A stretch of 11,548 bases of DNA from a bacterium (GCA_963646285.1 CAVIWF010000063.1:1-11548), one strand, 5' to 3'; positions 1 through 11,548 are shown, counted from the first letter of the stretch. Program-made: numbers and translations. Notes: generated from the letters alone by a model not told the origin.

Positions 1-81
1 GAAGGGGCTCGCCGATTTTCGATCTAGAGTTGAAGGGCTTGCGAGCCCTCCAACGTCACCCAGGGTTTGTTGATGGTCTGG

Positions 82-120
82 GCACCCCACGGTCAGTGTG
101 ACCATGGGGTGCCTTTTGTG
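82..120 (+). terminator. Probable rho-independent terminator of a + strand gene lying upstream of the window
   Basis: Stem 82-95 (gcaccccacggtca) pairs with 99-112 (tgaccatggggtgc): 14 bp with one mismatch and a 3-nt loop. It is followed directly by the T-rich 'cttttgtggttgtg'. Confidence 0.45.
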
Positions 121-249
121 GTTGTGAGAAATAGGTGGTTGATGCGGTAATTTGGTTTTGGGAGATGGCTGCTTCTGGGCTGCAATGGCGCAATATGCAG
201 CACGTTTTTGAAATGGACAAGTGAGGATAAAAGTACACTTTTGTAAACA

Positions 250-293
250 CCAAACCCACCGTAAATTCCCAAAGTAAGTTCCAAACCCACCGT
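250..293. repeat. 13-bp direct repeat CCAAACCCACCGT, two copies (250-262 and 281-293), 31 bp apart, upstream of the operon promoter
   Basis: Exact match read directly from the sequence. Spacing is about three helical turns. Function unknown. Confidence 0.5.
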
Positions 294-322
294 CGAAATC
301 AGGAAAATTGTTCCACAAATAG

Positions 323-351
323 TTGATTTTCTTGATTGCATTTGGTATACT
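323..351 (+). promoter_or_regulatory. Sigma-70-like promoter: TTGATT (323-328), 17 nt spacer, TGgTATACT extended -10 (343-351)
   Basis: Consensus-like -35, 17-nt spacer and a TG-extended -10. Predicted TSS is near 358, leaving a leader of about 190 nt before the gene-1 start at 546. There is no other promoter-like sequence closer to gene 1. Confidence 0.4.
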
Positions 352-545
352 TGAGTCGATGATTAGCGTTTTCAAGCTGATTGAGCATGTGTCGATAGCT
401 GGTTACAAAAGTGTGCTTTAGTAGACACATTTCTTGGAAAAGCAGCGCTTGTGCTGGGCAGAGATCGGCATGTGGTTCGGTGCATTCTGTGAGCGGAATA
501 CGAAAGTCCGCCTTCTTATCATATCAATCAAAAAAGGAGTCATGC

Positions 546-2285
546 ATGATGAGCAAGTTCATGATTGCCTGCCCGGTTTGCCACAGCTATGCGGAGGCAT
601 CGACTGGATTCTTTGCCAGCAAGCACATTCGGTGTTCTTGCGGCAATGTGATTCACGTAAAAACAGATCGGATGGCGACAAAGCGCTGCCCCAGCTGCGG
701 CAACGATGTGGTCTATGATCAGGCAGCAGGGAAGGACGCCAAGTGTCCTGTTTGTCATGCCCCGCTGTTGACCGATAAGGAGATGAATCATCTTGTCTCC
801 TTCCGGTGCACCACTTGCGGATGCCGCCTGCAGGCGGATAAGTGTGCGCAGCAAATCACCTGTCCCGTGTGCGATACGGTGTGCGACGTTCAGCAGGAAG
901 TGAAAAAGGCCGAAGTGCGTGATGCTGGCGTTCCTGCGGTCATCAGCTATGAAGGGGATAACAAAACCTTCGTGTGGAAGCATCCCGTTACGGACTTTGT
1001 GACGGGCAGCCAGCTGATTGTTCACGAAAGTCAGGAGGCTGTTTTCTTCCGCAACGGCGAAGCACTGGATTCCTTCGGCCCAGGCCGTTACACGCTGGAA
1101 ACGGGGATTCTGCCCAAGATGAGTAACCTGTATCCTTTGCCTGTGCAGGGGCAGCCCTTCCATGCAGAAGTCTATTTTGTGAACCTGACCACGCAAATGG
1201 GCATTAAGTGGGGAACGCCCAGTAAGGTTGGCCTCTTTGACCCTGCCACGGGCATCCATGTGGAGCTTGGTGCTTCTGGCTCCTTCAACATGAAGGTGGC
1301 AGATGCACGCCGCCTGCTGATTCGTGTGGTTGGCACCTCTGGCAGCCTGAAGCAGGAAGATATCTTTGGCCAGAATGGCACAGGCTATTTCCGCACCATT
1401 GTAATGACGCAGGTCAAGGCCAATCTGGCGAAGATCATCAAGGCAAACCGCATCAATGTCCTTGAACTGGATGAGCATGTGGATACCATCAGCCGTGCCC
1501 TGCGGGAGGCCATCAATCCGGAGCTTGCAGAATATGGTCTGGAAATGCCGGAGTTTTATGTCAGCAACATTGTAACCCCGGATGAGGATCCCAATCTCCG
1601 CCGCATGAAGCAGCAGCATGCAGATCTCTACCTGAAAACCCGTGAAGAGGAAATCAAGAAGGCCGAGGCAGAAGCCGCATTCGAACGGAAGGCTGTGGAA
1701 GCCCAGACCAAGGCACGGATGAACGTCATCGAAGCCCAAGGGGCAGCAGATGCGGCACGTATTGCAGGGCAGGCACAGGCGGACATTTACCGCATGCAGT
1801 CCGAAGCAGAAGCCCAGGAAATGCGCATGAAGGGCTACACCTACCAGCAGGAAACCGCCCGTCAGGTAGGCGTGGAAGCCATGCGAAACGGCGGCGCAGG
1901 GGTAACAGGCTTTGCCAGCGAGGCCATGCAGCTGGGCATCGGCCTTGGCACGGTGGGCAGCGTCATTGGCATGACGAAGGAAGCCATTCAGCCGGTGATG
2001 CAGGGCGTCAGCAGCATGGCACAGCCCACGCCTCCTGCGGAAAATGCAGGCTGGACGTGCACTTGTGGTCAAAGGAACATCACCAGCAAGTTCTGCCCTG
2101 AGTGCGGCGCAAAGAAGCCGGAGCCGCCTAAGCCTTGGGATTGCACTTGCGGACAGACGGGCATCACCAGCAAATTCTGCCCCAATTGCGGCAGCAAAAA
2201 GCCTGAAACCTGGGACTGCAGCTGCGGTCAAAAGCATATTACCAGCAAGTTCTGCCCTGAATGCGGCAGGAAGCGGGAGGATTAA
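546..2285 (+). CDS. SPFH/band-7 (COG4260, flotillin/'virion core protein'-like) protein with three N-terminal and three C-terminal zinc ribbons
   Basis: Start chosen at ATG 546 (MMSKF...), which follows the RBS AAAAAGGAG (533-540). The upstream extension to 411 has no RBS. Residues 9-109 carry three CxxC...CxC(x)C ribbons. The SPFH core (…ISYEGDNKTFVWKHPVTDFVTGSQLIVHESQEAVFFRNGEALDSFGPGRYTLETG…YFVNLTTQMGIKWGTP…) matches the COG4260 / B. subtilis YdjI-type family. This is followed by an Ala/Glu-rich coiled-coil segment and a Gly-rich hydrophobic patch. The C-terminus is three repeats of W(D/T)C(T/S)CGQ..ITSKFCP(E/N)CG(A/S/R)KK (double zinc-ribbon type). Confidence 0.85.
   Translation: MMSKFMIACPVCHSYAEASTGFFASKHIRCSCGNVIHVKTDRMATKRCPSCGNDVVYDQAAGKDAKCPVCHAPLLTDKEMNHLVSFRCTTCGCRLQADKCAQQITCPVCDTVCDVQQEVKKAEVRDAGVPAVISYEGDNKTFVWKHPVTDFVTGSQLIVHESQEAVFFRNGEALDSFGPGRYTLETGILPKMSNLYPLPVQGQPFHAEVYFVNLTTQMGIKWGTPSKVGLFDPATGIHVELGASGSFNMKVADARRLLIRVVGTSGSLKQEDIFGQNGTGYFRTIVMTQVKANLAKIIKANRINVLELDEHVDTISRALREAINPELAEYGLEMPEFYVSNIVTPDEDPNLRRMKQQHADLYLKTREEEIKKAEAEAAFERKAVEAQTKARMNVIEAQGAADAARIAGQAQADIYRMQSEAEAQEMRMKGYTYQQETARQVGVEAMRNGGAGVTGFASEAMQLGIGLGTVGSVIGMTKEAIQPVMQGVSSMAQPTPPAENAGWTCTCGQRNITSKFCPECGAKKPEPPKPWDCTCGQTGITSKFCPNCGSKKPETWDCSCGQKHITSKFCPECGRKRED
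2052..2282 (+). repeat. Three tandem, about 75-bp DNA-level repeats encoding the C-terminal zinc-ribbon modules of gene 1
   Basis: The peptides WTCTCGQRNITSKFCPECGAKKPE, WDCTCGQTGITSKFCPNCGSKKPE and WDCSCGQKHITSKFCPECGRKRED are encoded by clearly related nucleotide units: tgcacttg(t/c)gg(t/a)ca…atcaccagcaa(g/a)ttctgccc…. Confidence 0.7.
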
Positions 2286-2288
2286 GCA

Positions 2289-2930
2289 ATGAAGATGACC
2301 AAGCGTGCATGGATCATTTGGGGAATTTCTCTGGCAGTTGTGCTCGTGCTGATGGCTGCCATTCCTTTCGTCCGCACGGCAGCGTGGTGGATTGGTGCCG
2401 CTTGCACGGTGGTGATGTTTGGCCTGTGCGCCTTCACGTTCCATCTGGCCTTCCGAAAAGGCGGCGACATCGAAAGCAAGCTCCTTGGCTGGCCCATCTT
2501 CAAGGTGGGTTACACGGCGTTGATTGCCCAGGTGATGGTTGGGGGCATACTCATGGGGATTGCAGCCTTCTGCCCGGCGTGGCCGGCAGTGATTGCGGAG
2601 GTGCTCCTGTTTGCCGCAACAGGCATTTGCCTGACCTTGAAGGAAGCCTCCCGCACGGTGGTGACCCATGGAGAAGCAACCGTGCAGGACAGAACCCAGG
2701 GCTGGAAGGCCATCCGTGCCAAGGCCAACGCCCTGGCAGCATCCAACGGCAATAGGGACATGAAGAAGCTGGCGGAAGAAATCCGCTATGCTGACCCTGC
2801 GCCCACAGAGATGGATGGGAAGATAGCGGAGATGCTGGAGCAAATGACGGGAGAGGTCACGGAACAGAATGTGACGATGGTGAGGCAGATGGTGATGGAG
2901 AGGAAAGAAATGGGGAAGGGGAATAAGTAA
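2289..2930 (+). CDS. Small integral membrane protein (four predicted TM helices plus a charged C-terminal tail of about 90 aa), function unknown
   Basis: ATG 2289 lies 8 nt after GGGAGG (2275-2280) and 3 nt after the gene-1 stop. Four hydrophobic stretches are visible (AWIIWGISLAVVLVLMAAIPFV; WWIGAACTVVMFGLCAFTFHLAF; ALIAQVMVGGILMGIAAF; AVIAEVLLFAATGICLTL), followed by a K/E-rich tail. It may be a YdjH-like partner of the SPFH protein; that link is inference only. Confidence 0.75.
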   Translation: MKMTKRAWIIWGISLAVVLVLMAAIPFVRTAAWWIGAACTVVMFGLCAFTFHLAFRKGGDIESKLLGWPIFKVGYTALIAQVMVGGILMGIAAFCPAWPAVIAEVLLFAATGICLTLKEASRTVVTHGEATVQDRTQGWKAIRAKANALAASNGNRDMKKLAEEIRYADPAPTEMDGKIAEMLEQMTGEVTEQNVTMVRQMVMERKEMGKGNK

Positions 2931-2953
2931 AAAAGTGATTGAGGATGAGAAAA

Positions 2954-3637
2954 ATGGTTAGAAATAGCGTAATCCTGTATAAGTATATATCACGCCAATA
3001 CCTGATGGAGACGTTAAGAAACCAACAGTTGTATCTTGACGATGGTTCGAATTTTAATGATCCATTTGAATTGCTGATTGTAAGCAAAAGCGAGACCAAC
3101 GATAGACGAGTACAAGGGTTACATATACTCTGCCTGACAAATAGCTACAGAAAAAAACTGATGTGGTCTTATTATGGAGAGTCACATAAAGGTGTTTGCT
3201 TAACGATTGAAGTACCGAAAAAAATTGTCTACCCTGTATGCTACACTTCAGCGAGAGTGTATGAAAACAGCAATTTGGATGAGATCATTGCACATAGTAA
3301 CATAAATAGGAGGAAAAACACGAACTGCGATTATTCCACATTGAGCACAGAAAAAAAGATTGCTTTCATCAAGGATAAAAAGTGGAAAGACGAGAAAGAA
3401 TACCGTATTGTGCTCGATGGGAATGATGAAAAACTGCTGACGAATGAAGGCGGTAGATGGTTCTTGAAGGTGAAAATAAAGAACGTGTATCTGGGGGCAA
3501 GGTTTGCAGATGATGGGCAATGTACAGCGTCTGCAATTGAAGAAATATGCAAAGAAAAAAGGATAACAGTCAAGTATATGACACTTTCAAGAAGGAACTA
3601 TGGTCTAGACATAGCAAAGGAGCGTAAACTACCATGA
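2954..3637 (+). CDS. DUF2971-family protein
   Basis: The N-terminus 'ILYKYISRQYLMETLRNQQLYLDDGSNFNDPFEL' matches the hallmark DUF2971 start (LYKY…L…FNDPFE), followed by 'YYGESHKGVCL'. The start could instead be ATG 2945 or TTG 2939; 2954 gives the best spacing to GAGGA (2941-2945). The stop TGA 3635-3637 overlaps the ATG of gene 4. The gene is visibly AT-rich compared with its neighbours. Confidence 0.7.
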   Translation: MVRNSVILYKYISRQYLMETLRNQQLYLDDGSNFNDPFELLIVSKSETNDRRVQGLHILCLTNSYRKKLMWSYYGESHKGVCLTIEVPKKIVYPVCYTSARVYENSNLDEIIAHSNINRRKNTNCDYSTLSTEKKIAFIKDKKWKDEKEYRIVLDGNDEKLLTNEGGRWFLKVKIKNVYLGARFADDGQCTASAIEEICKEKRITVKYMTLSRRNYGLDIAKERKLP

Positions 3638-6600
3638 TCATCAAGTGCAAGATGTGCGGTGGAGACATCGAATTCACCCCGGGTGCGACCTACGGAACGT
3701 GCGAATATTGCGGCAGTACGTCCACCATCCCGAAGGCTGAGGACGAAGTGACCTTGAACCGCTACAACCGTGCGAACCATTTTCGCCGGCAGTGCGAATT
3801 TGATAAGGCTGTTGCGGCCTATGAGAAGATTCTCGAGCAGGATGACACGGATGCTGAAGCCCATTGGGGTGCGGTGCTGAGCCGCTATGGCATCGAATAT
3901 GTGGAAGACCCGACAACCAAGAAGCGCATTCCCACTTGCCATCGGCTGCAGGTGGCATCCATTTTGGCGGATGCGGACTATCTGGCTGCTGTCGAGCATG
4001 CACCTGACGAGGAAAGCCGCAGCCTTTATGAAGAACAGGCAGCGCAGATTGCGGACATTCAGAAAGGCATTCTCGCCATTTCTGCAAACGAGAAACCCTA
4101 CGATGTATTCATCTGCTACAAGGAAACGGATGAAAACGGTCAGCGTACCCGTGACTCGCAGTGGGCGCAGGACGTGTACTATGGCCTGACAGATGCAGGC
4201 TACAAGGTGTTCTTCAGCCGGATTACGCTGGAAGATAAGCTCGGCCAGCAATATGAGCCGTACATCTTTGCTGCACTGAATTCCGCAAAGGTGATGGTGG
4301 CCATTGGCAGCAAGGCAGAATACTTCAATGCCGTGTGGGTGAAGAACGAGTGGAGCCGTTACCTTGCCCTTATGGCCAAGGATCGCAAGCGTCTGCTGAT
4401 CCCTTGCTACCGGGATATGGATCCTTATGACCTGCCTGAAGAACTGTCTGCCCTGCAGAGCCAGGACATGAGCAAAATCGGCTTCATGCAGGATCTGCTC
4501 CGTGGTGTGAAGAAGGTGCTGGAAGCAGATAAAAAGAGTGAGCCGGTGAAACAGTCTGCACAGGTTGTCACCGCAGCATCAACAGCGGCGGTTTCTCCCG
4601 GTGTGACCAGCCTTATGGAGCGGGCTTATCTTTTCATGGAAGACGGCAATTTCGCAAGTGCAGAAGAATATCTGGATCGTGTGCTGGACATTGATCCCAA
4701 GTTTGCTTCAGCTTATGTGGCCAAGGTGTGCGTGACCTTCCAGTTGCGCAGAGAAGCTGAACTGGCGGAAACTACTTTCCAGTATGAGGACAATGCCGAT
4801 TGGCGGAAGGCTATGCGCTTTGCCAACCCGCAGCAGAAAGCTGTCTATGAGAACTATGCAGCAAAGGTAAAGGAACGCACAGAGCGTCAGATCCGGGATT
4901 ATTCCTACGATTGTGCCATGGAAATGGCAGTGAACCCCTATGCCAATAAGAACAAACTGGACAAAGAATTATCGTACTATAAGGTCTCCTGCACCCATTC
5001 TGACGGCTGCAGGGCTGACGGCAGCCGCCGAAAGAACAGCCAGATGAACGAGGACGCATTCAGACAGAATTTGAAAAGCAATGAGCCCGGCGATTTGAGT
5101 GAGCAAAACTTCAATACGGCCGCCGCCATGTTCGATGAAATTAAGGATAGCGATGCAGCCGAATGTGCCGGACAATGCCGCACGCTGGCGGAACAGGCAC
5201 GGCAGAAGAAAATCTACAAGGAAGCGGTAGCTGCATCGCAGAGCAACAGGGTACCTGATTTGCGGCAGGCGCAAGTGCTTTTTGCAAGCATTCCGCAGTA
5301 CAAGGATGCTGAGATGCGTGCAAAAAAGACGCAAGAAAAGATTGATAACATTCAGGCAAGCATCTATGCGGAAGCCGTGCAGGCTATGCAGAACGCAAAA
5401 GGAAACAGCTGGGATTGGTTAAATGTTAAGCATAAGCTGAGCAATAGGGTACTGGACAATTACCGTGATGTGGCTGCTTTGCGGATTCAGGCAGAAAAAC
5501 AGTATCATGAGAGCATTGCCAAGGAAGATGAAATGAGGCGCCGGCAGGCGGCCAGGAAAAAGAAGATGACCATCCTCGGCAGCACTGCCGCAGCAGTGGT
5601 AATTGCAATCATCCTGCTGGTAACGCAGGTGATTATCCCGTCTAATAATTATAACCATGCAGTGTCGTTGCGTGCAGCAGAAGATTGGGATGGAGCACGT
5701 GAAGCCTTTGCGTCTGCCGGCGACTACAGCGATGCGACAACGCAAATCAAGGCCACTTACTACGCCGAAGGCGAGGCCAAGCGGGCAGCAGGCGAGTGGA
5801 CTGAAGCCGTGGAAGCTTTCACGAATGCCGGCGACTACAGCGATGCGGCGACGCAAATCAAGGTCATCTACTACGCAGAAGGCGAAGCCAAGCGAGAAGC
5901 AGGCGAGTGGACTGAAGCCGTGGAAGCTTTCAAGAATGCAGGCGACTACAGCGATGCGGCAACGCAAATCAAGGCTACCTATTACGCCGAAGGCGAGGCC
6001 AAGCGGGCAGCAGAAGATTGGGATGAAGCACGTGAAGCCTTTGCGTCTGCCGGTGACTACAGCGATGCGGCAACACAAATCATGGTCACCTACTACGCAG
6101 AAGGCGAAGCCAAGCGAGAAGCAGGCGAGTGGACAGAAGCCGTGGAAGCTTTCACGAATGCAGGCGACTACAGCGATGCGGCAACGCAAATCAAAGAAAC
6201 TGAATATCAGAAAGCGCAGGCTCTGTATGCCTCCGCTGACTATGCAAATGCCTACACCACCTATAAGAGCATTTCTGGGTATAAAGATGTTGACAATCTA
6301 CTGGAAACAGACGAAAATCTAAAAGCAGCACTCGAAGCAAAGTTTACGGTTGGAAACTACGTAGAATTCGGTACCTATCCGCAAACAGCATCCGGCACGG
6401 ATAGCACACCCATCGAGTGGCTGGTGCTGGCGAGAGATGGGAACAAGGCACTGCTGATCAGCCGTTATGGCTTGGATACGCAACCATACAACAAAAAGAA
6501 GACGAATGTCACCTGGGAGGAATGCACGCTGCGCACCTGGTTGAACGGCACATTCATGAACAAAGCCTTTACTGCGAACGAACAGACCGGCATCCTGCTG

Positions 6601-6984
6601 ACAAATGTAGACAACAGCAGCAGTCAAGGATATAGCGGGTGGAGCACGAGCGGCGGAAACAATACCCAGGATAAGATCTTCCTGTTGAGTTATGCGGAAG
6701 CAAATCAATACCTGGATGTCACTTATGATGATAGCAATAACATGAAATCCAGGGTAGCGCCGACAGCGTATGCGAAGAAACAGGGAGCTGTTACATCCGA
6801 CTATGATAAGACAGCAGATGGTGATGAGTCCGGGTGGTGGTGGCTGCGTTCGCCGGGCAAAAAGCTGAGCGCCGCCGCGCGCGTGTACTACGACGGCTCC
6901 CTCAGCAACAACTACTATGTCAACAGTGGCAGTATTTGTGTCCGCCCCGCTTTGTGGGTTGATCTGGAATCTGGCATCTTCTGA
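3634..6984 (+). CDS. Single-pass membrane TIR-domain protein. The N-terminal Zn ribbon, TPR-like region and TIR are cytoplasmic; one TM helix follows; the 37-aa tandem repeats and DUF6273-like C-terminal domain are extracellular.
   Basis: RBS AAGGAG (3617-3622) precedes ATG 3634. Residues 5-27 form a CxxC…CxxC ribbon. Residues 153-290 form a TIR fold: 'KPYDVFICYKETDENG' is the betaA strand and 'AVWVKNEWSRYLALMA' carries the W…E motif, with Glu239 encoded at 4348-4350. Residues 300-640 are TPR-like and Lys/Arg-rich. The only long hydrophobic helix is 'MTILGSTAAAVVIAIILLVTQVII' (about aa 645-668, nt 5566-5637). Then come 4.6 × 37-aa repeats, and a C-terminal domain with 'GTYPQTASGTDSTPIEWLVLA…DKIFLLSYAEANQYL…WWWLRSPG…ICVRPALWVDL' that is typical of DUF6273. 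Confidence 0.9.
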   Translation: MIIKCKMCGGDIEFTPGATYGTCEYCGSTSTIPKAEDEVTLNRYNRANHFRRQCEFDKAVAAYEKILEQDDTDAEAHWGAVLSRYGIEYVEDPTTKKRIPTCHRLQVASILADADYLAAVEHAPDEESRSLYEEQAAQIADIQKGILAISANEKPYDVFICYKETDENGQRTRDSQWAQDVYYGLTDAGYKVFFSRITLEDKLGQQYEPYIFAALNSAKVMVAIGSKAEYFNAVWVKNEWSRYLALMAKDRKRLLIPCYRDMDPYDLPEELSALQSQDMSKIGFMQDLLRGVKKVLEADKKSEPVKQSAQVVTAASTAAVSPGVTSLMERAYLFMEDGNFASAEEYLDRVLDIDPKFASAYVAKVCVTFQLRREAELAETTFQYEDNADWRKAMRFANPQQKAVYENYAAKVKERTERQIRDYSYDCAMEMAVNPYANKNKLDKELSYYKVSCTHSDGCRADGSRRKNSQMNEDAFRQNLKSNEPGDLSEQNFNTAAAMFDEIKDSDAAECAGQCRTLAEQARQKKIYKEAVAASQSNRVPDLRQAQVLFASIPQYKDAEMRAKKTQEKIDNIQASIYAEAVQAMQNAKGNSWDWLNVKHKLSNRVLDNYRDVAALRIQAEKQYHESIAKEDEMRRRQAARKKKMTILGSTAAAVVIAIILLVTQVIIPSNNYNHAVSLRAAEDWDGAREAFASAGDYSDATTQIKATYYAEGEAKRAAGEWTEAVEAFTNAGDYSDAATQIKVIYYAEGEAKREAGEWTEAVEAFKNAGDYSDAATQIKATYYAEGEAKRAAEDWDEAREAFASAGDYSDAATQIMVTYYAEGEAKREAGEWTEAVEAFTNAGDYSDAATQIKETEYQKAQALYASADYANAYTTYKSISGYKDVDNLLETDENLKAALEAKFTVGNYVEFGTYPQTASGTDSTPIEWLVLARDGNKALLISRYGLDTQPYNKKKTNVTWEECTLRTWLNGTFMNKAFTANEQTGILLTNVDNSSSQGYSGWSTSGGNNTQDKIFLLSYAEANQYLDVTYDDSNNMKSRVAPTAYAKKQGAVTSDYDKTADGDESGWWWLRSPGKKLSAAARVYYDGSLSNNYYVNSGSICVRPALWVDLESGIF
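4090..4503 (+). other. TIR domain, predicted NAD+-hydrolase type with the catalytic Glu present, inside gene 4
   Basis: YDVFICY (betaA) and WVKNEW (alphaC 'W…E') motifs were read from the translation. Boundaries are approximate. Confidence 0.75.
5686..6196 (+). repeat. 4.6 near-identical in-frame tandem repeats of 111 bp (37 aa, TPR/Sel1-like 'W.EA.EAF..AGDYSDA.TQIK..YYAEGEAKR.AGE')
   Basis: The repeat-initial TGG codons sit at 5686, 5797, 5908, 6019 and 6130, exactly 111 bp apart. The units come in two flavours: A (WDGAREAFASAG…) and B (WTEAVEAFTNAG…). Their order is A-B-B-A-B(partial), which implies a duplication of a 333-bp A-B-B block. Confidence 0.85.
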
Positions 6985-7203
6985 TTTTTGATCCCGAATC
7001 TTGTGCACTGCATAAAAAGAGGGCAGGGTGGGGTGCAATCTTTGCCGTGCCCAAGTGTATAATCTTTCTCATGGAAGTCCCTCCTGCGTGTTGGCTGTGT
7101 ATGCCTATTCTGCACGCTGGAGGGGTTTCCCTTTTTGCAGAAAAGAGCCGCCCCATACGAGACGACTCCCATCATCCGCAAGGCGCTTCCCGCACCCCGC
7201 CTA

Positions 7204-8631
7204 TCATTCTTCTTCCTTCATCTTCAGCCCGCAGAAGTCGGCCATGGTCTTGACCAGCCCCCGTGCCCGGGCAGAGGTGGGCATTTCGCAGAAGATCCGC
7301 AGCCGGGGTTCCGTGCCAGAGAAGCGGGCAATGAGCCAGCCGTCGGCAAAGCGAACCTTTACCCCGTCCATGTAGCTGACGGAGGTGATCTCCTCGCTGA
7401 ACTGGGGCAGCTTCTTGTCCACCATCAGCAGCTGCTGCAGCCGATCCTTCATGGCCTGGTCGAAGGGCCAGTCAAACTCCAGCATCACCAGGTGACCGTA
7501 CCGCTTGTACAGGTCTTCCACCAGTTCGCTCAGCTTCTTGCCGGTTACGGCCAGCATTTCCACCAGCAGGGCAGCGGCATAAATGCCATCCTTGCCCTGG
7601 ATGTGCCCCCGAACGGTCAGGCCGCCGCTGGATTCGCCGCCGATAACCGCTCCGTGCTCCTCCATGGCGGAAGAAATGTACTTGAAGCCCACCGGCACCT
7701 CGTAGCACTTTTCCCCGTAGGCTTCTGCCACCTTGTCCAGCAGGTGGGTGGTGGCCAGGTTCCGCACGGCGCAGCCGTGCCAGCCCTTGATGCGCAGCAG
7801 ATAGTCGTACAGCAGCACCAGAATCTCATTGGGATGAATGAACCGACCCTTGTCGTCAATAATGCCCAGCCGGTCCGCATCGCCGTCGGTGGCAATGCCG
7901 ATGTCTGCATGATTCTCCTGCACGGCAGCACGGAGAGCGCCCAGAGTTTCCACATTGGGGGCAGGCAGGCGGCCGCCGAACAGGGTGTCGTGCCGCTCGT
8001 GAATCACATCCACATCGCACCGGGCCGTCAGCAGAATGGTTTGCAGGCTGGTGCGGCTTACGCCGTACATGGGGTCAAGGATAATGCGCAGCCCCCGGCT
8101 GCGAATGGCATCCATGTTCACCGCACGGATGATGCTGTCCAGATAAGCGTTCTGGGGATTGATCTCTTCGATCAGCCCGGTTTCAATACCCTTGGCATAG
8201 GGCATGGGATGGAGCTCCTCTTCCTTAATGGCGTTGGCAGCGTCCCCGATTTCGTTGGTGACTTCCTCCACAGCGTCCCGGCCGCCCTTGGTGAACAGCT
8301 TGATGCCGTTGTACAGAGCAGGGTTGTGGCTGGCGGTGACTGCCATGCCGTAATAAAGACCATAATCCTTCACCGTGAACATGATCAGGGGAGTGGGGGC
8401 TTCCCGGTCAATCACCCGGGTGTGAATGCCCTCGCTGGCCATGATTTCGGCAACCCATTCCGTGGCTTCTCTGGAAAGGAAGCGGCGATCATACCCGATA
8501 ACAAACCCCCGGCCGTCGCACTCTTCCGCCTTCATCCGCCGTGCCACAGCCAGTGCCAGCCGCTGAATATTCACACGGATAAAGTCGTCACCAATGATTG
8601 CACGCCATCCGCCGGTACCAAAATGAATCAT
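7204..8631 (-). CDS. Alpha-D-phosphohexomutase (phosphoglucomutase/phosphomannomutase family)
   Basis: All four family motifs are present: 'GMAVTASHNP' (phosphoserine loop), 'ATDGDADRLG' (metal loop), 'IGGESSGG' (sugar loop) and 'RFSGTEPRLR' (phosphate loop). The N-terminus is 'FGTGGWRA'. The RBS GAGGAGG sits about 10 nt upstream of ATG 8631 on the minus strand. The gene runs convergent to gene 4. Confidence 0.9.
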   Translation of the reverse strand: MIHFGTGGWRAIIGDDFIRVNIQRLALAVARRMKAEECDGRGFVIGYDRRFLSREATEWVAEIMASEGIHTRVIDREAPTPLIMFTVKDYGLYYGMAVTASHNPALYNGIKLFTKGGRDAVEEVTNEIGDAANAIKEEELHPMPYAKGIETGLIEEINPQNAYLDSIIRAVNMDAIRSRGLRIILDPMYGVSRTSLQTILLTARCDVDVIHERHDTLFGGRLPAPNVETLGALRAAVQENHADIGIATDGDADRLGIIDDKGRFIHPNEILVLLYDYLLRIKGWHGCAVRNLATTHLLDKVAEAYGEKCYEVPVGFKYISSAMEEHGAVIGGESSGGLTVRGHIQGKDGIYAAALLVEMLAVTGKKLSELVEDLYKRYGHLVMLEFDWPFDQAMKDRLQQLLMVDKKLPQFSEEITSVSYMDGVKVRFADGWLIARFSGTEPRLRIFCEMPTSARARGLVKTMADFCGLKMKEEE

Positions 8632-8777
8632 CTTACATACCTCCTCAGCTTCCCGCCTCAGGCAGGTCGTATCTAATCTCTACACCTATGGAATTCTCCG
8701 TAATTCAGGCTATTCCTTCTTTCTGAAAAAATGTTTCGGAAGTTGTATTATTCTTGTATTAAATATGACTAACGCCC

Positions 8778-8806
8778 TTGCCATCCCGGCGGCATGTTGG
8801 TATACT
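8778..8806 (+). promoter_or_regulatory. Candidate sigma-70 promoter TTGCCA (8778-8783), 17 nt spacer, TGgTATACT (8798-8806) for the MBL-hydrolase gene
   Basis: Good -35/-10 hexamers and spacing. The predicted TSS falls essentially at the RBS, giving a very short leader, so confidence is modest. Confidence 0.3.
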
Positions 8807-8826
8807 ATGCTTGGAGGTGTCGTTTT

Positions 8827-9576
8827 ATGCTGCATCAAATCACTGAGCACTGTTATGCGCTTCCCTTCGATGAACGGACGGATCGCCCTTCCCTGGGATA
8901 CGTGCGGGGAGATCGCTTCACCCTGCTGGTGGATGGGGGCAACAGTCCTGACCATATGGCATTGATGCACCGTGCCCTGGATGAGAAGGGTCTGCCCCGG
9001 GAGCAGCTGGTTGCCGTGACCCACAGCCACTGGGATCATACCTATGGCCTGTGCGCAACGGATGCCCCGGTCATCGCCTGCCGAAAGGCGCAAAAGGCAC
9101 TCCTTGCCATGCAGCACTGGGCATGGACGCCGGAGGATATGCAGCATCGGCTGGATACCCGGGAGGATATTCTCTTCTGCCACGACTTTATCCTGAAGGA
9201 ATACGCTGATCCCACCGCCATTCGGGTTCGTGCTGCGGATATTGTGTTTGATGAATTTCTGGAGCTGGACCTGGGGGGCGTGCATGCCCGGCTCATGCGG
9301 CTGAACAACAGCCACTCCCATGACAGCGTGGTGGTCTTTATCCCGGAGGACGGGGTGGTGTACCTGGGGGACATTGCCTACAAGGATCTGCACCACCAGC
9401 CCCCCTGCTGGCATGCCAACCGCCGGGCAGATTTGATGGGTGCACTGGATCGGCTGGATTTCCAGTGGGCAGTGCCCGGCCACCATGGCACCTGCCAGCG
9501 GGATGCATTCTTCCGGGGCATGGAGGAGGAGTTCGCCCAGGATAAGGCGGCGGGCATTCCTGTGCTGCAAGACTGA
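8827..9576 (+). CDS. MBL-fold metallo-hydrolase
   Basis: ATG 8827 follows GGAGGTG (8813-8819). The metal-binding motif 'THSHWDH' (HxHxDH variant) is present, along with a downstream His ('NNSHSHD') and Asp 'YLGDIAY'. These are typical of metallo-beta-lactamase-fold hydrolases. Confidence 0.8.
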   Translation: MLHQITEHCYALPFDERTDRPSLGYVRGDRFTLLVDGGNSPDHMALMHRALDEKGLPREQLVAVTHSHWDHTYGLCATDAPVIACRKAQKALLAMQHWAWTPEDMQHRLDTREDILFCHDFILKEYADPTAIRVRAADIVFDEFLELDLGGVHARLMRLNNSHSHDSVVVFIPEDGVVYLGDIAYKDLHHQPPCWHANRRADLMGALDRLDFQWAVPGHHGTCQRDAFFRGMEEEFAQDKAAGIPVLQD

Positions 9577-9651
9577 ATCCATCAGTGCAAGGGAGCATTT
9601 TCCCTTGCGCTTTCGTTTATTATGTGGATAGTTTTCGTGGAGGTACGTTTC

Positions 9652-11397
9652 ATGAAACGATGGTATTGCTGCCTTTTTTTGGCAGTGCTTTTCCTGTTGC
9701 CCATGGGGTGCAGGGCGGAAACCGCCATTTACGCCTTTGCTGATGCCTGGCCGGAAGCCCTTGCTTCTGCCGTGGCGGATACCCCCTTGGCTGCCGCCCG
9801 GCCGGTGGAAGGCTACGTGGCTTTCCGGGATGGGGCAACTTCCCACGGGGCAGCCGTTGCCCGGGATGATACCGGGTACCTGCTGGCGGTGTTCCACAGG
9901 GAAGGGGAAAGGTGGCAGGCTGATTATTCCCGGCAGGCCCTTCGGCAGGATGCGCCGCCCCAGATGTGGAATCAGGCCCTTTCCGAGGAGTGGAGCAAGG
10001 CAGACATTGCCGCCTATGATGGATCGGATCAGTTCGATTTGATTTATGCCGATGTGCGGTACACCTGGCAGGCGGAGGGGGATACCTGGCGCCTGACCCG
10101 TGCCCTGCTGCCTGTGGCCAACGTGGTAGTGAATGATCACCAGCTGTACTGGAACGAAGAGACGGTCTTTTATCCCCAGGAAACCACCCTGTCCGGTTTT
10201 GCGGAGGAAACCTTTCCCCGCACCCTGCTGGCAGCCCAGACCAATGCGGCTGCATCCCAGGAACAGGATCCTTCCCGTGGGGTGACCACCGGGGCAGGGG
10301 TGGGCACGGACTTCCCGGTAACCCTGTACGCCGCCCCTTCCAGTGGCAGCACGGTGGTGGGCTACTATGCCGCCGGGGTGGAAGCCCAGGTGCTGGATCA
10401 GGGCAGCGGCTACGTGAAGCTGGAGATAGGTGGCACCTTCTCCGGCTGGACGGAGGAGACCCATTTCCTTGCCGGTGCTTCGGCGGATGGTGCCGCTGAC
10501 CTTGCTGGGGAAATCACCATTCCTTCCCCCTTGAACGGCAAGTATTGTTCCCTGCTGGATGCCCCCAAGGCGGATGCTTCCTCCATTGCCCTGCTGGGGG
10601 TGCTGTTTCAGGTGCGTGTGCTGGGCATTACGGCAGATGGGGCCTACCTGCACGTGGCGCTGGCGGACGGGCAGACAGGGTATTTGCCTGCATCCTCCGT
10701 TTCGGCAGGGGAGGTGTGGATCACCAGTGATGCCCGGGAAAACCGGCTGAACCTGCGTCAATCCCCTTCCACCAAAGCCCAGACCCTGGGGAAGTATTTC
10801 GGCGGCGTGAAGGCTCAGCGGCTGTACGCCCCTCCGGCGGACACGGCGTGGATGCGGGTCAGCATTTACGGCTACACAGGCTGGATGATGAGTTCCTTCC
10901 TGGATACGGATGCATCTTCCGTGCCGGACATGCTGCCCCCTCTGGCAGTGGTGGATCCTGAAAACGACAGCACCCTGAACCTGCGCCTGGAGCCGGATCA
11001 GAAGAGCGACGCTCTTGCCCAGTACCCTTCCGGCACAGTGGTGGAAATTCTGGGGGTGAACAGCAACTGGGCTCATGTGCGGGTGGTGGACGGCAGTACC
11101 GGCTTCATGCTGCTGAAGTATGTGGGGGGCGAGCCTGTGTCCGCCGTGAAGAACGCCTTCCCTCTGGCGCAGGAGACTACCCTGACCGATGCCTTCGGCA
11201 ATGAAAATGTGACCCTGCCTGCCGGAACCGGTGTGGCCTCGGCAGAGGGACGGCTGTGCGCCCAGTGGCGGTACGATATCAGCAGCGGCGGCATGGTTTT
11301 CGCCCTGCCGGAGCAGGTGGAGCTTCACGCCGCAGACGCATGGGGCTATGTGCTGACGGAAAACGCCCCTGACATGTGGGCAATGGATGAAGAGTAA
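9652..11397 (+). CDS. Secreted protein with an N-terminal signal peptide and about four bacterial SH3 (SH3b/SH3_3) domains
   Basis: ATG 9652 follows GGAGGT (9639-9644). 'MKRWYCCLFLAVLFLLPMGCRAE' is a signal peptide; the lipobox is non-canonical. The segments 'LNLRQSPSTKAQTLGKYFGG…WMRVSIYGYTGWM' and 'LNLRLEPDQKSDALAQYPSGTVVEILGVNSNWAHVRV…GFM' are SH3b-like. Confidence 0.8.
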   Translation: MKRWYCCLFLAVLFLLPMGCRAETAIYAFADAWPEALASAVADTPLAAARPVEGYVAFRDGATSHGAAVARDDTGYLLAVFHREGERWQADYSRQALRQDAPPQMWNQALSEEWSKADIAAYDGSDQFDLIYADVRYTWQAEGDTWRLTRALLPVANVVVNDHQLYWNEETVFYPQETTLSGFAEETFPRTLLAAQTNAAASQEQDPSRGVTTGAGVGTDFPVTLYAAPSSGSTVVGYYAAGVEAQVLDQGSGYVKLEIGGTFSGWTEETHFLAGASADGAADLAGEITIPSPLNGKYCSLLDAPKADASSIALLGVLFQVRVLGITADGAYLHVALADGQTGYLPASSVSAGEVWITSDARENRLNLRQSPSTKAQTLGKYFGGVKAQRLYAPPADTAWMRVSIYGYTGWMMSSFLDTDASSVPDMLPPLAVVDPENDSTLNLRLEPDQKSDALAQYPSGTVVEILGVNSNWAHVRVVDGSTGFMLLKYVGGEPVSAVKNAFPLAQETTLTDAFGNENVTLPAGTGVASAEGRLCAQWRYDISSGGMVFALPEQVELHAADAWGYVLTENAPDMWAMDEE

Positions 11398-11418: not shown

Positions 11419-11454
11419 AGGGCTGATGTGAAGAATCAATTTCACATCAGCCCT
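11419..11454. terminator. Perfect 14-bp stem hairpin (agggctgatgtgaa / ttcacatcagccct, 8-nt loop) 22 nt after the stop of the SH3b gene
   Basis: The stem was read directly from the sequence. The T-rich run lies on the minus-strand side (11396-11418 reads aagaagaataaagacaatgaaaa on +). So it looks like an intrinsic terminator oriented for leftward transcription, or a bidirectional one lacking a + strand U-tract. Confidence 0.4.
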
Positions 11455-11461
11455 CAGGGCA

Positions 11462-11490
11462 TCGACAAAGTGGCCTTGCCACTTTGTCGA
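11462..11490. other. Second perfect hairpin (tcgacaaagtggc / gccactttgtcga, 13 bp, 3-nt loop), followed by (CACT)3 and further GAACGG/CCGTTC stems up to the window edge
   Basis: Read directly. It forms a dense structured region of unknown function, possibly a REP-like element, an ncRNA, or stacked terminators. Confidence 0.4.
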
Positions 11491-11548
11491 GTTGTGCACT
11501 CACTCACTGGTCGAACGGTTTCACCGTTCTCCCGGCCGTTCGTTCGTG

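Follow-up and report, generated by a model that had tools for sequence, protein, structure and literature searches.

The locus described here raises the question of whether four closely spaced bacterial genes form a single system and, if they do, whether that system is a defense against invaders or serves another purpose at the cell surface. The genes lie on a contig of 11,548 nt (GCA_963646285.1 CAVIWF010000063.1:1-11548), the whole of which is the window to which all positions below refer. A sequence-only reading had proposed a novel four-gene membrane-associated system, consisting of an SPFH scaffold with Zn-ribbons, a protein with four transmembrane (TM) helices (4-TM), a DUF2971 protein, and a TM protein with a TIR domain, encoded on one strand with spacings of 3 nt, about 24 nt, and a 4-nt overlap. 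The arrangement was borne out, with an exact middle spacing of 23 nt:

546-2285, plus strand: g1, 579 aa
2289-2930, plus strand: g2, 213 aa, 3-nt spacing from g1
2954-3637, plus strand: g3, 227 aa, 23-nt spacing from g2
3634-6984, plus strand: g4, 1116 aa, ATGA 4-nt overlap with g3

We find that the conserved core comprises three genes (g1, g2, and g4), not four, and that g1 and g2 are genetically coupled to one or several receptors of the g4 family. From their sequences and contexts we infer, with roughly even confidence, that the cassette may be a surface-sensing, TIR-based conflict or defense module, in which the receptors would be mounted on an SPFH/4-TM platform with g3 as an add-on.

Searches begun from each of the three core genes led to the same set. 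A genome scan with an alignment of the cytosolic half of g4 recovered 69 loci, nearly all labeled as Clostridia or other Bacillota (Oscillospiraceae, Christensenellales, Lachnospiraceae, and others), with a few bins labeled otherwise (e.g., Alloprevotella and Chloroflexi). In these loci, tblastn and clustering of open reading frames (ORFs) yielded three recurrent families, namely, the receptor (116 ORFs in 66 loci, the genes often standing in tandem arrays), a g2-like family (33 loci), and a g1-like family (31 loci); no fourth recurrent family emerged from the 71 loci clustered, in which every other flanking gene varies. On this side, g1/g2 were present in 43 of the 69 loci and in 7 of the 11 that extend at least 6 kb beyond the outermost receptor in both directions. 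A metagenome scan from the g1 side recovered 80 loci at 46 to 76% identity, and all 34 with enough flank (at least 5 kb upstream and at least 3 kb downstream of g1) encode g2 and at least one TIR receptor. From the g2 side, two distant representatives were again found to be flanked by a g1-like gene and TIR-DUF6273 genes. In each locus, a single g1-g2 pair is accompanied by one to five paralogous receptors. The neighborhood comparison that the sequence-only reading had proposed thus shows the SPFH, 4-TM, and TM-TIR genes to be a conserved linked set from all three sides, whereas the place given to the DUF2971 gene as a fixed member did not hold, as g3 is not obligate. Chance adjacency of the trio was rejected on the strength of the linkage in 34 of 34 loci.

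The g4 product is the putative receptor, and its principal parts are encoded as follows:

4105-4476, plus strand: TIR domain, residues 158-281, with the codon for E239 (GAG) at 4348-4350
5569-5637, plus strand: TM helix, residues 646-668, N-terminus inside
5670-6224, plus strand: stalk repeats, tandem 111-nt units encoding 37 aa, copies 81-85% identical
6442-6963, plus strand: DUF6273 ectodomain (C-type-lectin fold), hypervariable tip at ~6781-6945

Profile searches recovered TIR_2 (E = 1.6e-14), TPRs, and DUF6273 (E = 6.5e-31, residues 937 to 1110). The sequence RRRQAARKKK precedes the TM helix and places the N-terminal side inside by the positive-inside rule, and the protein is predicted to be a single-pass type II protein with its N-terminal 645 residues in the cytosol and its C-terminal 450 outside. 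The cytosolic part runs from a Zn-ribbon through TPR and TIR modules to an alpha-solenoid, and the extracellular part runs from the stalk of 37-aa repeats to DUF6273, a C-type-lectin fold targeted by diversity-generating retroelements (DGRs) in phage receptor-binding proteins (PMC10743442). The copy number of the stalk repeats differs by strain, with homologues at 98% identity spanning 1006 to 1119 aa, and some g4 paralogues bear RCC1/WD40-like propellers in place of DUF6273. Among solved structures, the TIR of flax L6 is nearest to that of g4 (E = 2e-4), and E239 aligns with the Glu of the L6 motif S-x-W-C-x-x-E, which we take to be the catalytic residue of L6, as in plant TIR NADases. An intact catalytic Glu had been noted before; it proved invariant both in an alignment of 48 sequences and in all 150 distinct TIR domains taken from related loci. 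An AlphaFold2 model of residues 1 to 660 (pLDDT 82.5) displays a beta Zn-ribbon, TPRs, the TIR domain, and a long alpha-solenoid, with no NTF2-like domain visible, and Foldseek searches with the cytosolic model returned only TPR and TIR matches (TPR proteins, the SARM1 TIR, and TIR-STING). These ~640 residues are the most conserved part of g4, and the cytosolic half has at least 8000 homologous clusters at 90% identity.

The opposite end of the protein is hypervariable, and one related locus, L073 (related loci carry L numbers throughout), points to how this could arise. There, the receptor gene is followed by genes for bAvd (16925-17323) and a reverse transcriptase (RT; 17750-18799). A template repeat/variable repeat (TR/VR) pair of 109 nt at 16589-16697/17372-17480 is 89% identical; apart from one, its mismatches coincide with adenines of the TR, and the VR forms the 3' end of the receptor gene. 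These features identify a complete, bona fide DGR whose target is the C-terminal DUF6273 of an 1826-aa TIR receptor; it sits on a relaxase/recombinase element. DGR remnants are found in L042, L070, L072, L074, and L086; in L072 and L074, an IS21-type insertion replaces the DGR and a bAvd fragment remains. Between the window and L001, a relative at 98% identity, positions 1226 to 5600 show 2.3% mismatches, 68% of them at codon position 3; the lectin domain (6450 to 6945) shows 11% mismatches, 84% of them at codon positions 1 and 2, and the varied g4 codons coincide with AAY codons of the L073 template. Comparison of L072 with L074 gave the same pattern: of 23 mismatches in the receptor gene, 14 fall within its last 200 nt. 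Because the lectin mismatches follow this pattern in both pairs, the sensor tip of g4 is under DGR-type or very strong diversifying change. This extracellular, strain-hypervariable g4 sensor, a DGR target in relatives, is the key feature that the sequence-only reading missed. Also absent from it were the extracellular DUF6273 domain, the 111-nt tandem repeats, the foreign composition of g3 (see below), the arrays of paralogues around a single SPFH/4-TM pair, and the location of several clusters on mobile elements.

The partners of the receptor are a soluble SPFH protein and a small integral membrane protein. g1 contains a Band_7_1 domain (PF13421; E = 5.9e-41, residues 151 to 347), five CxxC motifs N-terminal to it and three C-terminal, and no hydrophobic segment or TM helix. 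Its order is an N-terminal Zn-ribbon module, Band_7_1, a coiled coil with a Gly-rich segment, and three C-terminal Zn-ribbon repeats:

2058-2281, plus strand: g1 C-terminal Zn-ribbon repeats, three tandem 75-84-nt units, W-x-C-x-C-G-Q...F-C-P-x-C-G

The number of these units ranges from two to four among homologues (alignment A3). g1 is present as a single copy per locus in 109 related loci, and a PDB sequence search with it gave only a spurious Zn-ribbon match. g2 has four hydrophobic helices followed by a ~95-aa cytosolic helical tail with an invariant R-x-A-D-P motif. It had no Pfam or NCBIfam match, and an NCBIfam search of g1 to g4 returned nothing above cutoff. Hidden Markov model (HMM) searches recovered 1708 cluster representatives of the g2 family (clusters at 50%), all of ~220 to 235 aa, and the gene lies directly after g1 or close by. 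In some lineages, an extra gene stands between g1 and g2. Its product in L105 (2825-4816) and five loci like it has 663 aa and matches RCC1 weakly; in L037 (15825-16529), it is a 234-aa YbjQ_1-domain protein.

The remaining gene, g3, matches DUF2971 (PF11185; E = 2.4e-7) and has an ExE motif (EKE, residues 147 to 149). The family had been described as uncharacterized, a view that is now outdated: it has been placed in the ADP-ribosyltransferase (ART) superfamily near DarT/AbiGi (PMC12522546), and a DUF2971 protein, Aristaios, is a single-gene antiphage system that protects in Lactococcus (PMC11381338). Five PADLOC PDC-S31 models match g3, with PDLC04990 at E = 9e-25; a PADLOC check had been suggested in the expectation of a negative, which was obtained for g1, g2, and g4 but not for g3. 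The GC content of g3 is 0.382, and that at third codon positions (GC3) is 0.42, against 0.52 to 0.62 and 0.60 to 0.75, respectively, in the neighboring genes (GC of g1, g2, and g4, 0.52 to 0.58). The nearest trio-bearing relatives, L003 and L004, lack g3 and have a g2-g4 spacing of ~20 to 30 nt, which implies a ~700-nt insertion in the g2-g4 spacer. On these grounds, g3 appears to be a compositionally foreign, optional accessory gene that was inserted later.

DUF2971 is nonetheless a recurrent optional partner of these clusters. HMM iteration found DUF2971-like genes in 16 of 155 related loci, representing ~12 lineages by our own grouping, usually directly upstream of g1 and in some cases between g2 and the receptor. 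Of three g3 homologues sampled, two stand in unrelated contexts, consistent with autonomy. The same slots are elsewhere occupied by AbiH/SIR2-like genes (9 loci), HEPN genes (5 + 1 loci), HNH and GNAT genes, and small unannotated genes. A 54% homologue of g3 is present in L159 and L160, a distant cluster with the order g1-g2-DUF2971-receptor, in which the receptor-like gene has no TIR domain. In L159 (5146-9480; likewise in L160), this cluster comprises an HTH regulator, a 377-aa Band_7_1 + SHOCT protein without Zn-ribbons, a g2-like gene, the DUF2971 gene, and a 585-aa protein that joins a g4-like Zn-ribbon/TPR N-terminus to an RCC1-like propeller.

Whether the four genes of the window behave as a unit can be judged from its signals and from strains that lack them. 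The relevant features are as follows:

80-120, plus strand: intrinsic-terminator hairpin and U-run, ending the upstream transcription unit; left cassette edge
323-351, plus strand: sigma-70-like promoter candidate, TTGATT-17-TATACT with extended TG, 9/12 match
7073-7138, plus strand: terminator-like hairpin and T-run 3' of g4; right cassette edge at 7140-7145
7204-8631, minus strand: phosphoglucomutase-type gene (PGM/PMM), convergent with g4

A GGAG lies 5 nt 5' of the g1 ATG, and tRNA and Rfam scans of the window gave no match. The single consensus-like promoter reported upstream does exist at 323-351, but such matches occur in the window at chance frequency (8 versus 7.3 expected from shuffles), making the candidate weak evidence on its own. 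The claims that no terminator precedes the end of g4 and that g4 converges on the next gene are both upheld: intragenic terminator matches in our scan are short and at chance level (15 versus 11.5 expected). That scan missed both strong hairpins owing to their loop size, and separate folding detected them. The left one (80-114; -28 kcal/mol, z -3.7) is followed by UUUUGUGG, and the right one folds at 7073-7130 (-31.8 kcal/mol, z -4.15). These two bounding hairpins are stronger evidence for a unit than the promoter-like site.

Among contigs with an identical PGM protein, the four genes are present in L165/L001 and L166 and absent from L167 to L169 and L170. Strains with and without the cassette are typified by GCA_963622715.1 and GCA_963630795.1, respectively. 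From 7140-7145 onward, the window is homologous to the empty sites, and in L170 a repeat element of ~80 nt, identical to window 1-83, abuts the empty site, which implies that window ~84-7144 is a single indel. This segment of ~7 kb holds a hairpin, the promoter region, the four genes, and a hairpin, and within the species the four genes are thus gained and lost together as a terminator-bounded unit. The left hairpin edge is common to the window and L166, where the cassette stands in another left context, and is absent from L170; the junctions fall at window 80-84. The repeat itself recurs: both contig ends (window 1-83 and 11451-11548) are copies of short repeat elements that are also present elsewhere, including at the ends of contigs, in assemblies of the same species (L166 1-74, L168 1-52, L167 1-56, and L170 8873-8944 and 11484-11673). 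The 1-83 copy may have taken part in the indel as a REP/MITE-like element or may be merely an assembly breakpoint. The left end of the cassette at 80-92 (GGCACCCCAC) and the chromosome at 7145-7155 (AGCCGCCCCAT) share an imperfect GC(N)CCCCA motif, which could be a recombination core or a coincidence. L001 (7507-7656) has lost the upstream hairpin and promoter region together with ~226 codons from the start of g1. Through this deletion, a 542-aa gene is joined to what is left of g1, a truncated Band_7_1 ORF of 331 aa, and the strain may be able to dispense with g1 or may be losing it.

In several lineages, the clusters adjoin genes for serine recombinases, resolvases, or relaxases. The mobile element of L072 to L074, recovered from many samples, carries, in this order, a resolvase/serine recombinase, g1, g2, HEPN, and the receptor. 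In L156, toxin-antitoxin genes (ParE/Phd, Fic/Phd, and MazE) and a WYL regulator (2132-2724, 8391-9007, 11909-12088, and 12803-13711) are interleaved with a g1-g2-receptor-receptor cluster. Searches of 2.9 million viral contigs gave one match, and those of INPHARED phages and PLSDB plasmids gave none; a phage- or plasmid-borne family in those collections was ruled out by these near-zero counts.

Comparison with known systems places the trio as a variant of TIR-based or DGR-sensor conflict systems. It is assigned neither to Thoeris nor to the Psp/Sam module, since the defining features of both were looked for and not found. The likeness to the Bacillus subtilis PspA-YdjGHI (SamGHI) system, judged by described domain features only (g1/g2/g4 against YdjI/YdjH/YdjG), lies in a soluble SPFH protein of the Band_7_1 type that has a low-complexity segment and one or more Zn-ribbons at its C-terminus, in the integral membrane partners encoded alongside, and in an N-terminal Zn-ribbon partner (YdjG there, a protein with Zn-ribbon, NTF2-like, and TM parts, and the CxxC...CxxC of g4 here). 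YdjI/SamI has the architecture Band_7_1 plus C-terminal Zn-ribbon (PMC8581546; PMC11237479), and it is recruited by membrane partners whose signaling it restrains (PMC8581546; bioRxiv 10.64898/2026.02.06.704340). In contrast, no PspA domain is found in any protein of the window or recurrently in the related loci, g2 lacks the TPM domain of YdjH and any Pfam/NCBIfam similarity, g1 has an additional N-terminal Zn-ribbon module, and the Zn-ribbon membrane partner bears a TIR domain and an extracellular lectin and is multiplied into arrays. The link to PspA scaffolding drawn in the sequence-only reading therefore fails, as the window has no PspA gene and the related loci show no additional recurrent family, and a PspA-type envelope-stress operon was rejected for want of both PspA and a TPM partner.

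Thoeris and other TIR antiphage systems share with the clusters a TIR domain with a catalytic Glu, an accessory mobile context, and toxin-type neighbors (SIR2-like, HEPN, nuclease, and ART-like). They differ in that g4 matches neither ThsB nor any other TIR model (PADLOC-DB v2, E ≤ 0.01) and no ThsA/ThsB model is matched, in that g1 to g3 lack signal-binding domains (SLOG, Macro, etc.), and in that the TIR protein is here a TM receptor with an extracellular sensor. A systematic survey of TIR systems mentions no SPFH, flotillin, or DUF2971 partners (bioRxiv 10.64898/2025.12.03.692087). DGR-diversified lectin "antigen sensors" joined to TIR effectors are known (PMC7159879, PMC10907252), and these VMAP/iSTAND ternary systems and STAND NTPases resemble g4 in having a C-terminal lectin-fold variable region after N-terminal effector domains, including TIR, and a sensor tip rewritten by a DGR (here in L073). 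Unlike them, the clusters have no STAND, MoxR, or vWA domain, place the sensor outside the cell on a single-pass protein, and have SPFH/4-TM partners; moreover, those systems belong to multicellular bacteria, whereas ours are from unicellular gut Clostridia, with no DGR in the window. g3 resembles Aristaios and PDC-S31 in its DUF2971 domain, model matches, and ExE motif but has 227 aa against the 316 of Aristaios and lies in an operon, overlapping the next gene by 4 nt. As an architectural analogy only, with no common descent implied, animal Toll-like receptors also combine an extracellular ligand-binding domain, a single TM helix, a cytosolic TIR domain, and paralogue families; the TIR of g4 is, however, N-terminal (the opposite orientation) and probably an enzyme rather than an adaptor-recruiting scaffold, and its ectodomain is a lectin or propeller instead of leucine-rich repeats. 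Literature searches (SPFH + TIR, Band_7_1 + TIR_2, and DGR + TIR in Firmicutes) found no description of the cluster, and a global survey of DGR targets does not mention TIR.

If the cassette is a conflict module, its action might be envisaged as follows. The ectodomain of g4 would bind an external ligand that varies; a phage particle, or some other structure that belongs to an invader or to a cell surface, is the most plausible candidate. Clustering driven by the ligand would bring the cytosolic TIR domains together and switch on NAD+ cleavage, causing NAD+ depletion or signal production and ending in growth arrest or abortive infection. The g1/g2 pair, by analogy with SamI/YdjI, could be a shared submembrane platform that assembles or restrains the receptors; the sequence-only reading had suggested that a flotillin-like platform might gate a TIR NADase. 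g3 would either be a single-gene defense that acts independently and is simply carried in the operon or serve as an optional effector that uses NAD+, and toxin-type genes embedded in the clusters might likewise be optional effectors or hitchhikers. Published work on SamI/YdjI (PMC8581546; bioRxiv 10.64898/2026.02.06.704340; PMC11237479) and on lectin sensors that DGRs diversify and that are linked to TIR effectors (PMC7159879; PMC10907252) supports this scheme. A more ambitious form of this proposal, which we offer tentatively as a possibility, is an "outside-in" innate immune receptor system of gut Clostridia, with arrays of single-pass receptors whose ectodomains, some of them DGR diversified, would recognize phage particles or other invaders at the cell surface and whose TIR domains would be carried on a dedicated SPFH/4-TM raft with swappable toxin-type effectors (ART-like DUF2971, SIR2/AbiH-like, HEPN, and HNH). 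Such a system would be a bacterial counterpart of the Toll-like-receptor layout with anticipatory diversification of the receptors.

Several observations weigh against a defense module so constituted. In 4 of the 11 receptor loci with ample flanks, g1/g2 are not within reach; the receptor-like gene of L159/L160 lacks a TIR domain, so that this domain is not indispensable to the module; and L001, lacking window ~80-1225, has a 5'-truncated g1. The window is devoid of a DGR (RT, bAvd, and template repeat), no DGR remnant is found downstream of g4, and L001 likewise lacks RT, bAvd, and a repeat of the g4 3' end; a DGR acting on g4 in trans is possible. None of g1, g2, and g4 is covered by a PADLOC-DB v2 model, many genes embedded in the clusters lack annotation, and the cytosolic half of g4, at 60 to 78% identity across families, is unusually conserved for a defense gene. 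This very high conservation and the large paralogue families would suit the main rival, a module for nonimmune surface sensing or envelope homeostasis, in which glycans of host or dietary origin, matrix, or neighboring cells are the ligands of the receptors, the SPFH/4-TM pair works like SamGHI in membrane-stress signaling, and the TIR domain derives a physiological signal from NAD or serves only for assembly. The match of g1 to the YdjI/SamI architecture (PMC8581546; PMC11237479), the housekeeping genes that flank the window, the near absence of the family from viral contigs and from phage and plasmid records, and the finding that the targets of cellular DGRs are in general anchored in the membrane and bind extracellular substrates (PMC8144416) point the same way. 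We nevertheless consider this rival doubtful in view of the presence/absence polymorphism within one species, the carriage on recombinase/relaxase elements, the Abi-type and toxin-type genes that are repeatedly embedded, the strict retention of the catalytic Glu, and the lack of a PspA or TPM partner.

How g3 fits bears on a different alternative, in which DUF2971 is an integral fourth component, for instance, an effector downstream of the TIR protein. Its occurrence in 16 of 155 loci and ~12 lineages at fixed positions (either immediately 5' of g1 or in the interval from g2 to the receptor) would be explained by such a role, as would the 54% homologue, the closest nonidentical relative of g3 with context, which keeps the g1-g2-DUF2971-receptor order in a distant cluster; the 4-nt overlap of g3 and g4 suggests translational coupling, and TIR and ART enzymes both use NAD+ (family knowledge; PMC12522546). 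Set against this are the majority of clusters, including those of the nearest relatives, L003 and L004, that lack DUF2971, the foreign composition of g3, the other gene types that occupy the same slots, the unrelated contexts of two of the three sampled homologues, and the ability of DUF2971 alone to protect against phage in Lactococcus (PMC11381338), matched by its listing as a PADLOC single-gene candidate, so that we regard an obligate fourth component as unlikely. Very improbable, and already disfavored, is the notion that the g4 family consists merely of DGR-diversified adhesins with the SPFH/4-TM genes as unrelated housekeeping neighbors: the lectin fold is a known DGR target in phage receptor-binding proteins (PMC10743442) and some receptor genes have no g1/g2 nearby, yet from the g1 side the linkage is complete (34/34) across 46 to 76% identity, it persists while all other flanking genes change, and the 640 cytosolic residues, which an adhesin would not need, are the most conserved.

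To our knowledge, known bacterial TIR systems sense infection inside the cell. If the proposal of a surface-sensing conflict module is correct, bacterial immunity would gain a branch that senses at the surface, SPFH proteins would have a concrete client, and the DGR diversification of membrane proteins in gut Firmicutes would be explained. Members of the family are very numerous, abound in the gut metagenomes of humans and animals, and are entirely unannotated. Beyond PGM/PMM, the window encodes a metallo-beta-lactamase-fold protein and a 591-aa secreted protein with three SH3_3 domains (8794-11397); as both genes are kept in cassette-free strains, they are not part of the cassette.

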